From the sequence record OL960581: a stretch of DNA of 64,000 nucleotides, one strand, 5' to 3'. The notes below the pieces were generated by a model. The model was given only the letters and a program-made list of their open reading frames with translations. It did not search any database and had not been told where the DNA came from. Below are positions 59,083-64,000 of the stretch, piece by piece. Position 1 is the stretch's first letter. Every line of letters starts with the position of its first letter. The position numbers and the translations under genes are program-made. Source of the stretch: Escherichia phage vB_EcoM_SA20RB.

Positions 59083-59426
59083 CTAGTACTCAATCCTCGA
59101 TTATAAGAATCTACCAAACGGTCAACCATTGAATGACAAGCGGCTTTATCTTTCTCCTCCGCAACTGAACATTCTAAGGTATTCCACTTTTTAGCATATC
59201 GTTTTAACAATGTATCATTTTTATATCTACTTGATTTATCTCTTTCTCCGTCTTTATATGCATATATTAATTTCTGCGCAAATTCAGCTTGGCATGCTTT
59301 ATTTTTCCCACAATAATCTGCCGCAGTGCGATTTACATATTCTCTAATTTCAGTATATGATGTATCTGCTGACGCAGAAGCAGAAAATGAAATTAATCCT
59401 ATACATAAAACCAAAATTTTAGTCAT
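59079..59426 (-). CDS. secreted/periplasmic protein (115 aa)
   Basis: signal peptide MTKILVLCIGLISFSASASA; four Cys. Confidence 0.5.
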   Translation of the reverse strand: MTKILVLCIGLISFSASASADTSYTEIREYVNRTAADYCGKNKACQAEFAQKLIYAYKDGERDKSSRYKNDTLLKRYAKKWNTLECSVAEEKDKAACHSMVDRLVDSYNRGLSTR

Positions 59427-59964
59427 TTACTATTTCCAAAAGTTTATTATTTTTAAGGTAATTAGCCTTTTCTAGGACTTCAGAAGCATATTTAGAACCT
59501 GCTTTAACATTCCATCCCGAATTATAAGAGGATATTGCTTTTCTTATATCACCCTTATGTATATTTAACCAATAAGAAAGTTCAATGTACGCCCAGGAAG
59601 CTGAATTGGATCGTTTATTCAACATTCTTTTTATTTCGGCATCGGTCATATTATAACCAAGTTCCTTAACTCTTGCTCGCATAGTAGGCAAATAATTTTG
59701 GAACATTCCGTAGGCGTGATGCTTTGGTTTAGATTTTAAATTAACTCCGGCAGAGCTTTCTTGCCATAAAATAGCAGCCATTATATGACCCAATCCGCTC
59801 TTGTGGATGTTTTTGTGTGTTTTATATTTTCCATCCTTAGAAAATTGTTCCCCGAATTGATATGCGTAGCGCATGTTATCGAGTTGGACATTACTGAAAG
59901 TATGCTCGGAGCTATGTGCCATCATTGAAATGGCCAATAGACCAGCGAGTAGTGCTTTTCTCAT
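59419..59964 (-). CDS. periplasmic lytic transglycosylase-like protein (SLT domain, 181 aa)
   Basis: signal peptide; SLT-like motifs LWQESS, GMFQ, SSYNSGWN. Confidence 0.5.
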   Translation of the reverse strand: MRKALLAGLLAISMMAHSSEHTFSNVQLDNMRYAYQFGEQFSKDGKYKTHKNIHKSGLGHIMAAILWQESSAGVNLKSKPKHHAYGMFQNYLPTMRARVKELGYNMTDAEIKRMLNKRSNSASWAYIELSYWLNIHKGDIRKAISSYNSGWNVKAGSKYASEVLEKANYLKNNKLLEIVND

Positions 59965-59971
59965 GCTTACC

Positions 59972-60433
59972 TCATTGAGTTTTAATTACGGCTTTAGAAG
60001 CCTTTCCTGGTAAACGACGACTGTTGATAATTGCCATCCTACATTGAAGTGACGGGTCTTTGAACTTCGCGTTAGGTTTACAAACTGTAAATCCAAGCCA
60101 AAGATTTCCATCTGTGATTTCTAAACGTCCAGGACGATATTCAACCCCATCAATAAAATCCTCGTCAATGTCAGGACGCGGAGGCATACTCAGGAATTCA
60201 TTAACTTCTAAAACATGGTCTTTTATTTTGTGGAATAATTCAAAAACATATGTCTCATCAATCTCCCGTTGAATTGCACGATCAAGAAGATGTTGAGAAT
60301 ATTTTAGATGAAACGATGAGACCCCTGCTGCTTTTGATGCCTCACGAATCTCATTGTTAATTTGACGAAACTCCGACTCAAAGTGACGACGAAGTTTATT
60401 TCGACGGATAAAAACTTCTGTATTGATAGTCAT
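59972..60433 (-). CDS. regB: endoribonuclease RegB (153 aa)
   Basis: 153 aa; N-terminus MTINTEVFIRRNK; early promoter upstream. Confidence 0.75.
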   Translation of the reverse strand: MTINTEVFIRRNKLRRHFESEFRQINNEIREASKAAGVSSFHLKYSQHLLDRAIQREIDETYVFELFHKIKDHVLEVNEFLSMPPRPDIDEDFIDGVEYRPGRLEITDGNLWLGFTVCKPNAKFKDPSLQCRMAIINSRRLPGKASKAVIKTQ

Positions 60434-60460
60434 GTTATTCTCCTCTTAACTGATAGAAAA

Positions 60461-60490
60461 ATTATACCACAGTCAAGAGGAAAAGTAAAC
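60461..60490 (-). promoter_or_regulatory. T4-type early promoter
   Basis: plus attata 60461-60466, gtaaac 60485-60490. Confidence 0.55.
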
Positions 60491-60492
60491 AA

Positions 60493-60771
60493 TTATTCTT
60501 TAAATCTAATCAATTTATTCATAGACTTTGTAACTTCTGCACGAACCTCATGTAGGTTTTTAAGCTGTTCAAGACGCTGCTCATAGTAAGCAATTTCATC
60601 TTCTTCGAGACAGTCCTGTGAATCTTCTTTAAGATAACGTGCATAGTCCTGGAAAGCTTTACGGACTACTTCCTGGAAGTCATCAAGACTTTGAATTTTC
60701 TTAGGAGCAACAGATACACGACGAGGGGCAGTATAATACTCATAACCAAACCCTGCGCTTAATTGGGCCAT
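60493..60771 (-). CDS. hypothetical protein (92 aa)
   Basis: ATG 60769-60771 in TAATG overlap with upstream stop (track start GTG 60813). Confidence 0.4.
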
Positions 60772-61037
60772 TAATATTTTTCCTCTGGTTGGAACACAGC
60801 ACGACAAGCCCACATACTGGCTTCTTTGAGTTTCGTTTTAGCAATAGTTAACTGATCGAGACTTTCAGCATAATTCTTCGCGAATTCACAGTCTTCACAA
60901 TTATTTAGTGCTTCCCAGAATTCATCATACAAAGCATCAAAGATAAGTCCTAAACGAACTTCAGCGTCTTTGATAGCATTCACTTTACCGATTTTCTCTT
61001 CAGTATGTGGTTTATAACCTTTAATGTCTTCAATCAT
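60771..61037 (-). CDS. hypothetical protein (88 aa)
   Basis: ATG start. Confidence 0.45.
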
Positions 61038-61251
61038 ATTTTACTTCCTCACCAGTACCTAAATCATATTCAACTAAACGAATAGGCTCATGAATGCCAT
61101 AACCCTGAACAGAAATTTCTGTCGTAGGATAAATTCCATCAATATCACCCATATTCCATGCTTCATTAAATTGCTGTTCGCCTGAATTACTAAACCACTC
61201 GGCGAAAGCATTTAGCACATCTTTAGAACCTTCAATAATTATCTTTGCCAT
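61030..61251 (-). CDS. hypothetical protein (73 aa)
   Basis: ATG start abutting upstream stop. Confidence 0.45.
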   Translation of the reverse strand: MAKIIIEGSKDVLNAFAEWFSNSGEQQFNEAWNMGDIDGIYPTTEISVQGYGIHEPIRLVEYDLGTGEEVKYD

Positions 61252-61613
61252 TACAAACTCTCAGTAAAGGTACGAGCGATAACGTCGCGCTGCTGTTCCG
61301 GAGTTAGAGAGTTAAAGCGAACTGCATAACCGGATACACGGATGGTCAGCTGCGGATATTTTTCCGGATGCTTAACTGCATCTTCCAGAGTTTCACGACG
61401 CAGAACGTTAACGTTCAGGTGTTGACCACCTTCAATTTTAACTGTAGGCTGTTGCTCAATTTCAATTTCACGGGCATGCAAACCATAGAAAATTTCTGGG
61501 TCTACAAAAGAGTCCTCTTTAAAGGTTTTAGAGACAATAATTCGTGCTTGAATACCATCTTCAAAATAAATAGTACCTTTATGTGTGCCTTCAAGAATTT
61601 GATATGCTTTCAT
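61251..61613 (-). CDS. autonomous glycyl-radical cofactor (GrcA/YfiD-like, 120 aa)
   Basis: C-terminal about 60 aa ..[60 protein letters not shown] with RVSGY glycyl-radical motif, as recalled for E. coli GrcA and T4 Y06I. Confidence 0.75.
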
Positions 61614-61620
61614 ATAAACC

Positions 61621-61848
61621 TCAATTAGAAAATAAATTTATCCAAGATTGTTCTTTAATTAAAAATGGCTCAGAATCATATGCCATTAAACTCTGTGTGA
61701 TTAGTCCTTTAAAAGGCCCATCAATAAATTCCATGGTAAAATATGGAATTTTATTCATTAGCCGTGCATTAGGAGCCGTGCACAAAACTCTGCATCCTTT
61801 GAATACGCCTTTTTGTAATTTGTATTGCTTAGGATAAAATTCGCTCAA
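61621..61848 (-). CDS. doubtful ORF (75 aa from TTG; 45 aa from first ATG)
   Basis: no ATG start or SD at the 5' end. Confidence 0.25.
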
Positions 61849-61948
61849 AATGTTATTTTTTTTGCCAAAATTTCAAAATGATTCACCAATTTATTTTTAA
61901 TAGTTTTTGGTGAAAAATAAAGATATTCGAAAAGCTGAGTGTCTGTCA

Positions 61949-62491
61949 TCATTGCATTCCGATTACGAAAAACTGCGGACGAGTAATACCACCAATGCAG
62001 CATTTACTATTGCAGCAGTGTTGCACAGTTTCAATATGAATATCGTAAATTTTATCCATATCAGGAGATTTAACAGGCTCATCGATTATATACAAAATTC
62101 GAGAAAGCGATAAACCTCTGAACTTGCTACCTCTATTACCAACAAAACTACGGACAGAATCAGTAAATAAACGGAATCGAATATCATCGCTAGAATAACG
62201 AGAAAATTCTTTTTTAATGCGGCCCGCAGAAATTTTAGCGTAAGCTGAAGTATTAGAAAGAACAATAACTGTTCCACCATCATACAACCAATTAGCGGCA
62301 AAATTAGTTACTGCAGTTGATTTACCAGATTGTCTGCCACCATCTAAACGAAGTGTACAATATTCTTTAAATAAATGCGACGAATCAGGTACATAAAATC
62401 CACTATTACAAATTTCTTCTACTCTAGCATCAGAATGGTGTGTAAAAGCATTCATCAGGGATAGATAAGGACCAGTTAAAAATGTTCTCAT
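61949..62491 (-). CDS. small P-loop NTPase (180 aa)
   Basis: Walker A GGRQSGKST, Walker B ILYIIDEP; ATG start. Confidence 0.5.
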   Translation of the reverse strand: MRTFLTGPYLSLMNAFTHHSDARVEEICNSGFYVPDSSHLFKEYCTLRLDGGRQSGKSTAVTNFAANWLYDGGTVIVLSNTSAYAKISAGRIKKEFSRYSSDDIRFRLFTDSVRSFVGNRGSKFRGLSLSRILYIIDEPVKSPDMDKIYDIHIETVQHCCNSKCCIGGITRPQFFVIGMQ

Positions 62492-62631
62492 TTCTTCTCT
62501 CTAAGTTTGGGCCATTCCATGGCGCATGAATTGTCCATTTCTGTATTTACCCATTACCGCACTTGGGCTCGACCTTATTACAGGTTGGCGGGAATCCCTC
62601 ACAGAATCATGAGGTCCAGGTTGTTCCCATA

Positions 62632-63105
62632 TTATTTGAACGATTTAACGTACTGAATAGAACCTTTACTATTCACGAAAGCGATTTTACCATTTTTATT
62701 ATACATGGTAGCAGTACGCTGATAGCCATAAGTTTGCTTACCAGATTGATAACCAACTAATGCAAAATTATCTTCACCCATTTTATTCTGTTTAGCACGA
62801 ATGCGTTCATGACCATGTGCCATAAGAACCTTAGCATCACCAGTTGCAATGGATCTACGAGTTTTTTCATCTTCAACTGTATTAACAAAGTCGTCAAATG
62901 AATCAAATTTAGCATGAGATTTATTATACAGTTTTCCATCTACTGCATAATTATATCCCTGTACATCCATCTCAACTTCTGTACCATCATCCAATACAGC
63001 AGTGATTTTCTGTCCTTTTTTAAATTTCAAAAGATCAGTAAAAGATTCAGCAATAATTTGAGAATTAATAGCTGCTTCAGTAATAAATTCTTGATATGTT
63101 TTCAT
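62632..63105 (-). CDS. capsid internal protein with N-terminal capsid-targeting sequence (157 aa)
   Basis: N-terminus MKTYQEFITEA matches T-even IP capsid-targeting sequence (MKTYQEFIAE); AAAGGAAA SD. Confidence 0.6.
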   Translation of the reverse strand: MKTYQEFITEAAINSQIIAESFTDLLKFKKGQKITAVLDDGTEVEMDVQGYNYAVDGKLYNKSHAKFDSFDDFVNTVEDEKTRRSIATGDAKVLMAHGHERIRAKQNKMGEDNFALVGYQSGKQTYGYQRTATMYNKNGKIAFVNSKGSIQYVKSFK

Positions 63106-63159
63106 GTGTTTCCTTTAAATATTTTAATTAGTAATCTATTTATTTAAGTAACTGTGAAT

Positions 63160-63189
63160 ATACTATCACAGTTTTAGGAGAAAGTAAAC
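63160..63189 (-). promoter_or_regulatory. T4-type early promoter
   Basis: plus atacta 63160-63165, gtaaac 63184-63189. Confidence 0.5.
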
Positions 63190-63193
63190 AACT

Positions 63194-64000
<807 letters not shown>

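Follow-up and report, generated by a model that had tools for sequence, protein, structure and literature searches.

We found that a stretch of 140 nucleotides (nt) in Escherichia phage vB_EcoM_SA20RB very probably encoded a functional structured RNA. The stretch occupied positions 62492-62631 of the window, that is, of the whole 64,000-nt piece of sequence record OL960581 that was analysed, and it was located between the gene vs.8 and a gene for an internal virion protein. An earlier note had described it as non-coding, GC-richer than its surroundings and unexplained. The first two observations held: there was no conserved open reading frame (ORF) in the stretch, and its GC content was 47.1% as compared to 34.4% for the window, which corresponded to the 99.7th percentile of 140-nt windows. 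The third did not, since the unusual stretch appeared to be a structured RNA that was present in phage T4 itself. The element was under strong purifying selection at the RNA level, was not translated and was not tied to vs.8.

The RNA was read from the minus strand, and in Tevenvirinae it consisted of a core and two hairpins at the 3' end, P6 and P7 (Table 1). The core was built on a 5-bp helix P1 and a pseudoknot that joined the 5' side of the P1 loop to a segment located 3' of a three-way junction domain. This junction contained a near-invariant 32-nt core that included the loops and joining strands ACCUGURANAAGGUCNAG...GGUAA. The identical layout fitted 59 distinct sequences that belonged to clades of T4-like phages, Vequintavirus, Pseudomonas phages and metagenomes. 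There was a single copy of the RNA in the window, where none was expected by chance.

The periphery of the fold was more variable. The short hairpin previously pointed out in the stretch (cctca, 8 nt, tgagg) was indeed present at 62597-62614 and corresponded to helix P1a, which was a real but dispensable part of the structure. Namely, P1a had a compensatory CCUUA/UAAGG version within Tequatrovirus (L063; L numbers designate individual loci), a paired C/G deletion in the TG1-type sequences and a nested-hairpin extension in other Tevenvirinae, and it gave way to a linker of 7 nt (UGAAAUA or a similar sequence) in the clade of Pseudomonas phage PsgM04F and a 46-kb contig. P6 and P7 were missing from most clades outside Tevenvirinae. 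The P6 stem varied (AUG/CAU, ACAU/AUGU, AAAU/AUUU, GUG/CAC) around a conserved GGAC loop, as judged by eye only. P7 was conserved as GCCANGGAAYGGC with little covariation in 47 distinct Tevenvirinae loci, and an analogous hairpin, GUCCAG-GACG-CUGGAC, was present in Vequintavirus. Two resemblances were recorded in the P1a region of non-T4 Tevenvirinae. Its extended form, for instance in L010 (IME341), placed CAUGA opposite CUGAGUGA on the minus strand, which resembled the box C/D (k-turn) signatures, and CCUCUCCUC in the same region resembled an anti-Shine-Dalgarno sequence.

The evidence for the fold came from compensatory changes. There were 20 distinct compensating helices for P1 (such as GGGAA/UUCCC, AAAGG/CCUUU, AAGC/GCUU, GGGG/CCCC, GGAAC/GUUCC, GAGUG/CACUC, GUGUAU/AUACAC and UGAGG/CCUCA), 28 for the pseudoknot (such as CUCGA/UCGAG, ACACG/UGUGU, CCAGC/GCUGG, CGGA/UCCG, GAGG/CCUC and AAACCG/CGGUUU) and 16 for P3. 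In the structure-guided alignment, changes on both sides of a pair were found in 16 of 26 pairs (209 cells) and in all six pseudoknot columns. The covariation score was 0.488. Shuffling the partners lowered it to 0.124±0.010 (0/500), and sliding them by 1-3 columns gave no more than 0.093. The helices P4 and P5 were invariant in the first sequence set but covaried in more divergent members, where P4 became GCCU/AGGC (L081, L084) and P5 became GUC/GAC, GGC/(U)CC or GCG/CGC. The G·U pairs were confined to the minus strand, and therefore the minus strand was the functional one.

Fitting bias was addressed by a partner-swap control, where the 5' region of each sequence was refitted with the 3' region of another sequence by the same procedure. 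The native value for P1 was 252 against 134±18 after permutation, and the corresponding values for the pseudoknot were 335 and 243±15 (0/5000 in both cases). The 100% pairing in the pair-count output arose by construction, because only fitted pairs entered the stems, and it was not taken as evidence. When RNAalifold was given 19 Tevenvirinae sequences in a plain MAFFT alignment, it recovered P1 with double-sided changes in all five of its pairs. Because MAFFT did not align the 5' half correctly in the short clades, the pair counts were based on the structure-guided alignment together with the partner-swap control.

The distribution of the element pointed in the same direction. A blastn search (word size 11) with a 156-nt region matched 1032 phage records; this conservation, together with the compensatory changes, was far beyond chance. 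The stretch had no blastn match in 5,426 complete Escherichia coli genomes. The RNA was found at the same position in each inspected record of the Tevenvirinae genera Tequatrovirus, Dhakavirus, Jiaodavirus and Tegunavirus. Among the Tequatroviruses it was 96-100% identical, as compared to 87-93% for the adjoining vs.8 coding sequence (CDS). Outside this group, blastn showed that the 43-nt core (62550-62592) was 92-95% identical in Vequintavirus (Murica and HdK5), in records named "Campylobacter phage" and in PsgM04F. Scans with exact patterns derived from the core found 39 viral contigs, later 59, together with 27 from metagenomes, including contigs of 17-140 kb and a 359-kb jumbo-phage contig. 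The core pattern had no match in genomes representing 185,579 bacterial and archaeal species (one genome each). These two negative results ruled out host-derived DNA or a prophage, and the RNA was restricted to phages. No RNA feature was annotated at the site in the phage records inspected.

The genomic neighbourhood of the RNA was different outside Tevenvirinae. In Murica, HdK5 and PsgM04F, it was located inside clusters of transfer RNA (tRNA) genes, on the tRNA strand. Forty-five loci lacked the Tevenvirinae P7 signature, and five of them were T4-like with inserted hairpins. A tRNA was present on the same strand within 1 kb of the RNA in 27 of these 45 loci, and several loci without a tRNA were cut off by contig ends. 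All 132 tRNAs in the P7-less loci were co-oriented with the RNA. Thus, the RNA behaved positionally like a gene within tRNA arrays. There was no tRNA near the RNA in Tevenvirinae. Vequintavirus, PsgM04F, the 359-kb jumbo contig and other contigs carried the RNA without any vs.8 homologue, and in L030 it preceded an internal-protein gene instead of vs.8. Since the Vs.8 homologues were found in Tevenvirinae only and the RNA was distributed more widely, functional coupling of the RNA to Vs.8 was rejected. In Murica, a promoter-like site and a small ORF were located about 100 nt before the RNA, and the next gene had a near-consensus sigma-70 promoter (TTGACA-17-TAAAAT, 11 of 12 matches) downstream of the RNA. 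Therefore, the RNA there ended a transcription unit and was not a leader of the next gene. The earlier note had considered that the stretch could be plain leader sequence conserved in relatives. It was conserved, but it was not plain leader sequence, since it was a covarying pseudoknotted RNA that also occurred outside the T4-likes.

Several further observations were made at these loci. In some clades, including that of the 46-kb contig, the RNA was enclosed by a long outer stem, which contained a loop-E-like GAA/AGUA module. In a 46.7-kb IMG/VR contig (L016, 5100-5760, minus strand), the units on both sides of the RNA shared its outer-stem flanks (AGUGCUCUU..GUUGUG and CACAAC..GGUAAGAGCA) and held differing contents of about 130 nt, just upstream of four tRNAs; these units may be an array of several structured RNAs. 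Slopekvirus-like loci (L028, L033, L034 and L073) had a divergent tandem second copy about 40-60 nt downstream of the first one, with compensatory P4 (GCCU/AGGC) and P5 (GUC/GAC, GCC/GGC). In Vequintavirus (L004, 2140-2200 on the minus strand; L011, 1318-1416), an ORF of 25-32 codons with its own promoter-like site preceded the RNA (MMNIQFKDEFDGFISGCFETGFGEG in Murica). The tRNA cluster at Vequintavirus loci (L004, 864-962; L011, 62-160; and others) also contained a 99-nt "tRNA" with the four-base anticodon atcc predicted by ARAGORN, which appeared as tRNA-OTHER in GenBank.

We compared the RNA with known families. Rfam 15 (4227 models) gave no match overlapping the RNA in the window at E≤10, and a scan of ten diverse loci at E≤1, which did detect the tRNAs next to the RNA, gave none either. 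Thus, the RNA family matched no Rfam 15 model. A tRNA or transfer-messenger RNA was rejected because ARAGORN found nothing over 61500-63300 and the Rfam tRNA model matched only the true tRNAs flanking the element. A mimic of 16S ribosomal RNA was also rejected. Although GCGGUAAU matched the 530 loop and GUAACAAGGU, present in some members, matched nt 1497-1506, these matches were at chance level, and in local alignments to 16S, 23S and 5S between 30 and 295 of 300 shuffled queries did as well. The T4 species 1 and 2 RNAs (rnaC and rnaD) are small phage RNAs of a tRNA cluster and are similar in position to the present RNA in the non-T4 phages. However, they had no motif or sequence in common with it when compared by eye only, and a relation was rejected on this basis; rnaC ends in a tRNA-like T arm, and in T4 the present RNA was about 6 kb away and unannotated. 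GOLLD and ROOL are orphan structured phage RNAs of 500-800 nt that are often adjacent to tRNA genes. They are far longer than the present RNA (about 90-120 nt), and their Rfam models gave no match.

How the RNA may act can be proposed from its context, and we put the following mechanism forward tentatively, with rather more doubt than confidence. The RNA would be excised from polycistronic transcripts, as the tRNAs around it are, and would then act in trans as a stable small RNA. Its invariant three-way junction could provide a pocket or surface for a binding partner that very different phages and hosts have in common. The likeliest partner would be a component of tRNA metabolism or translation or of RNA processing, or else a host defence factor targeting it. 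In the T4-likes, P6 and P7 may additionally couple the RNA to vs.8 translation. The explanation as a whole, namely a Vs.8 orthologue next to an RNA family with this processed, trans-acting mechanism, was held with confidence poised midway between belief and disbelief, as a compromise between the structured RNA and its mechanism.

Several points weighed against this explanation. Folding of the single sequence was uninformative for both strands and no better than that of shuffled ones (z = +0.78 and -0.48), which was expected because the fold was pseudoknotted, and it provided no support either. The pseudoknot of the T4 type had just 3 bp. The alignments used for pair counts were structure-guided, and the homologues were gathered with a pattern that fixed the core; therefore, the invariance of the core was independently demonstrated by the blastn matches alone. 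No promoter or terminator flanked the RNA in the window. The earlier note had likewise reported no promoter, tRNA or terminator features, and we found promoter-like sites at the background level of shuffled sequences and no terminator-like site. Finally, the RNA was nearly always immediately 5' of vs.8 in Tevenvirinae, which also fitted a leader acting in cis.

Such a leader would be a riboswitch or a protein-binding operator of vs.8, where the junction and the pseudoknot would sense a signal and P6/P7 would serve as the expression platform. Approximately 1000 Tevenvirinae records had this arrangement, in which about 20 nt separated the end of the RNA from the start codon. The conservation of the core was also like that of an aptamer. 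Similar to the THF-I and SAM-type riboswitch aptamers, the RNA was about 90 nt in size, with a pseudoknot that locked a multi-helix junction, and its stems covaried freely while the junction nucleotides were invariant. In contrast to these riboswitches, it had no matching Rfam aptamer, and neither the downstream gene nor an expression platform was consistent from clade to clade: P6 and P7 were clade-specific, and the RNA was followed by tRNAs, by another structured RNA or by a gene with its own promoter, in addition to the internal-protein gene in L030. A possible alternative pairing in favour of a switch was suggested by RNAalifold, where the junction core (GGUCGAGCC..GUGCG) paired with the P7 region (UGUGCC..GG..UGGCC), that is, alignment columns 75-91 with 131-147 (about 62574-62558 with 62525-62509). 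However, this pairing was G·U-rich and had no covariation; its columns were conserved and the changes were only from wobble to Watson-Crick pairs. It could be a conformational switch of Tevenvirinae or a chance result. With no vs.8 homologue outside Tevenvirinae, we considered it unlikely that the RNA is a vs.8 leader.

Another alternative was that the RNA is a processing or stability element, either a self-cleaving ribozyme of a new class or a fold that blocks nucleases and defines the ends of polycistronic tRNA and mRNA transcripts. Its position was suggestive, since the RNA was present in tRNA clusters and in the T4-likes lay 3 nt past a stop codon, at a cistron boundary. Its role would be analogous to that of the theta ribozymes, a subgroup of the HDV-like ribozymes (HDV, hepatitis delta virus) that adjoin tRNAs in gut phages (Kienbeck et al. 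2024, PMC10879173); like the present RNA, they are small, are carried by phages and occur among tRNA genes. The order of strands was also the same. All 59 distinct sequences had P1, a pseudoknot strand, a hairpin, P1', a further domain and the second pseudoknot strand, which corresponded to the P1, P2, P3, P1', P4, P2' order of the HDV-like nested double pseudoknot.

The catalytic features did not follow the topology. HDV-like ribozymes are defined by a catalytic cytosine at the first J4/2 position (PMC10879173), which had no counterpart here: the nucleotide after the P4-equivalent stem was A in the T4 type and U, G, C or absent in other clades, and the J4/2 equivalent was 0-9 nt long with a variable sequence. 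The obligatory P3/L3 hairpin was dispensable, as it was reduced to a 7-nt linker in one clade (that of PsgM04F), and no P1.1 helix was evident. The most conserved nucleotides of the present RNA were in the P4-equivalent domain, which is variable, minimal or dispensable in the HDV-like ribozymes. The tRNA-associated theta subgroup cleaves within ±5 nt of the tRNA 3' end, and no such fixed adjacency was seen: the distance from the upstream tRNA 3' end to P1 was 5 nt in L093, about 23 in L078, about 25 in L077 and about 100 or more in L025, and ranged overall from 5 to more than 170 nt. Since there was also no match to an Rfam ribozyme, including the HDV family, even at E≤10, membership in the HDV-like/theta group was rejected. 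A processing or stability element in the broader sense was judged improbable.

We also considered a more specific reading, in which the RNA would be an effector of counter-defence or host takeover in the form of a sponge or decoy aptamer, or else a new class of self-cleaving ribozyme. The sponge or decoy would sequester a conserved host factor, for instance an immune nuclease directed against tRNAs, an enzyme of RNA processing or a nucleotide used in immune signalling. Both an effector and a ribozyme would be compatible with the invariant junction, the restriction to phages, the position among tRNAs and the neighbourhood with vs.4 and the internal-protein genes. In particular, the vs.4 orthologue (60771-61037, minus strand) matched Pfam Acb2_Tad1_hairpin with E=8e-20. 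By this similarity, vs.4 was a predicted Acb2/Tad1-type nucleotide sponge against the cyclic-oligonucleotide-based anti-phage signalling system (CBASS), two genes away from the RNA. Together with the flanking internal-protein genes, it made the neighbourhood of the RNA in the T4-likes an accessory, counter-defence region. A counter-defence role was plausible given this neighbourhood, and the specific effector or ribozyme reading was regarded as doubtful.

The remaining alternatives would make the stretch something other than RNA. It might be a feature of the DNA itself, such as a remnant of denV or a mobile element, a target of a homing endonuclease or host DNA, with its conservation being due to recent horizontal spread. 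The locus was indeed hypervariable, with gains and losses of denV and the internal-protein genes, and the near identity of the 43-nt core between phages that are unrelated might point to transfer. However, the same sequence was present between the upstream stop codon and the vs.8 ATG in T4, G9062, RB3 and Sf25 whether denV was present or not, T4 and G9062 carrying both, and it had no similarity to DenV and no match among the bacterial genomes searched. Stems that were compensated between clades around a fixed core indicated a long-term constraint on an RNA fold rather than recent transfer. Thus, this very improbable reading was largely refuted by covariation.

A protein-coding stretch, whether as an N-terminal extension of Vs.8 (annotated in T4 NC_000866, where vs.8 is placed at 64253-64912, 219 aa, starting at 64912 and running over the RNA) or as a separate 33-aa peptide (a 102-nt CDS for a "hypothetical protein" at 63712-63813 of G9062 NC_054920, with a corresponding 33-aa GTG ORF at 62501-62602 of the window), had almost no probability and was effectively refuted, as the frame upstream of the vs.8 ATG was shut by a TAG at 62503-62501 and closed before the conserved core in 38 of 40 distinct Tevenvirinae loci, the distance from the core to the ATG fell in all three phases across these loci (15/14/11), close relatives differed by 1-nt and 9-nt indels and mostly had the in-frame TAG, the changes were compensatory in stems and not at third codon positions, all 22 Vs.8 homologues compared began at the downstream ATG, and the identical core type was found within tRNA clusters. 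The T4 and G9062 annotations were probably artefacts.

Table 1. Elements of the structured RNA and genes of the surrounding region (positions in the window; paired strands are given 5' to 3' on the minus strand)
Feature	Position	Strand	Evidence or remark
Whole Tevenvirinae RNA, about 118 nt: core and 3' hairpins P6 and P7	62511-62628	-	Tequatrovirus identity 96-100%; blastn in 1032 records
Universal core, about 88 nt: P1, pseudoknot, P1a, three-way junction	62541-62628	-	Fits 59 distinct sequences and further clades
P1, 5' strand GGGAA	62628-62624	-	Pairs with 62590-62594
Joiner CAAC	62623-62620	-	
Pseudoknot, 5' strand CUG, inside the P1 loop	62619-62617	-	Pairs with CAG 62541-62543
P1a hairpin CCUCA-UGAUUCUG-UGAGG	62614-62597	-	Variable, optional
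Joiner GA	62596-62595	-	
P1, 3' strand UUCCC	62594-62590	-	
Three-way junction domain (P3/P4/P5)	62549-62589	-	
P3, 5' strand GCC	62589-62587	-	Pairs with GGU
P4 hairpin ACCU-GUAAUA-AGGU	62585-62572	-	
Joiner CGA	62571-62569	-	
P5 hairpin GCC-CAA-G(U)GC	62568-62559	-	
Junction strand GGUAAUG	62558-62552	-	
P3, 3' strand GGU	62551-62549	-	
Linker AAAUA	62548-62544	-	
Pseudoknot, 3' strand CAG	62543-62541	-	3 bp; 4 bp (CCUG/CAGG) in close relative L066
P6 hairpin AUG-GACAAUU-CAU, GGA in loop, Tevenvirinae-specific	62538-62526	-	Stem variants, by eye only
P7 hairpin GCCA-UGGAA-UGGC, Tevenvirinae-specific	62523-62511	-	About 20 nt before the vs.8 start codon (62491)
vs.8 CDS, 180-aa single-domain P-loop (ASCE/RecA-like) ATPase	61949-62491	-	ORF, Walker motifs, synteny, phrog_1488
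vs.1	59419-59964	-	Region gene list
regB	59972-60433	-	Region gene list; vs.3 to vs.7 next
Ip4-type internal virion protein gene (DUF7412)	62632-63105	-	Pfam DUF7412 E=6e-96; annotated Ip4 in RB3
Lysozyme e	63194-63688	-	Region gene list

The protein encoded next to the RNA was ordinary and already known. The earlier note had recognised a 180-aa ORF with Walker A (GGRQSGKST, aa 51-59) and Walker B (ILYIIDEP, aa 132-139) motifs, and a small P-loop NTPase was confirmed. Its further hint that the protein might fill the place of denV was not borne out, as the ORF was the resident T4 gene vs.8. Namely, tblastn gave 87% identity to T4 Vs.8, which had the same position, orientation and Walker motifs with no difference of substance. 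The syntenic ORF was labelled vs.8 in RB3, Sf25 and T4, and in annotated genomes (RB3, Sf25, IME537, G9062 and T4) it was located between vs.7 and the denV/ip genes on the same strand. Judging by sequence, the ORF was thus assigned as the orthologue of T4 Vs.8, and a match to a known T4 product of this locus was the result that the earlier note had named as refuting the protein half of its observation. The T4 RefSeq protein was 39 aa longer because its annotation was extended across the RNA.

Residues 3-180 matched phrog_1488, a family of unknown function, with E=5.4e-78, and a weak resemblance to a terminase ATPase domain was also seen. In 22 homologues with identity down to 40%, the Walker A and B motifs were invariant together with two arginines, and all 22 had the M-x-x-F-L-T N-terminus starting at the downstream ATG (62491). 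The AlphaFold 2 model had a predicted local distance difference test (pLDDT) score of 84 and consisted of one RecA-like α/β domain. Its Foldseek neighbours were ATPase domains of helicases, terminases and KaiC (E 1e-4 to 1e-2, template-modelling score 0.4-0.5). These were generic ASCE ATPases, and the fold search gave no functional assignment. All 1010 records with Vs.8 homologues belonged to Tevenvirinae.

The window came from a Tequatrovirus (T4-like phage), and every gene of the region 59419-63688 was on the minus strand. The segment 61600-63200 matched 797 phage records (megablast), with IME537, PD112 and ACG-C40 among the top ones at 97% identity. In T4, the order of genes was vs.8, the RNA stretch, denV, ipII, ipIII and e, so that the RNA was located between the denV stop and the vs.8 ATG. 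In SA20RB, the place of denV and ipII/ipIII was occupied by the single Ip4-type gene, with its TAA stop (62632-62634) 3 nt ahead of helix P1. The absence of denV, also noted previously, was supported by tblastn with T4 DenV, which found no denV-like sequence anywhere in the 64-kb window (best E=1.5).

Two other genes of the region deserved comment. A vs.3-like ORF (60493-60813, minus strand) carried the name "putative pyrimidine dimer DNA glycosylase" in the RefSeq record of IME537. It had no Pfam Pyr_excise match and only a sub-threshold one to Tex_N; T4 DenV itself, the positive control of the denV search, matched Pyr_excise. This label was probably wrong, and the ORF was probably not a replacement of denV. 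The vs.7 region (61621-62003) was broken into two ORFs (61845-62003 and 61621-61848) at a T-run of the plus strand (61856-61863), where the coding strand had A8 as compared to A6 in T4, IME537 and G9062. This was either a 2-nt frameshift giving a pseudogene or a homopolymer sequencing error.

A review of post-transcriptional control in T4 stated in 2010 that this phage had yielded no functionally characterised riboswitch or regulatory RNA acting in trans, and that the genomes of its relatives might reveal such candidates (PMC3014915). We found no description of the present element in the full-text literature, the coverage of which was incomplete, so that an earlier description is possible. The stretch is a candidate regulatory RNA of T4 that is covarying, pseudoknotted and more conserved than the neighbouring genes, and that has been hidden under an over-extended vs.8. 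It also corrects gene models, namely that of vs.8 and those of small "hypothetical proteins" overlapping the RNA in phage records. It also occurs in large lytic phages that are unrelated to the T4-likes (rV5-like, Pseudomonas and jumbo phages), where it is located among tRNA genes. The RNA adds a fold without an Rfam model and provides a small, genetically tractable object for the non-tRNA RNAs of phage tRNA clusters. If it were a sponge or decoy, phage T4 would thereby have its first functional structured RNA acting in trans.

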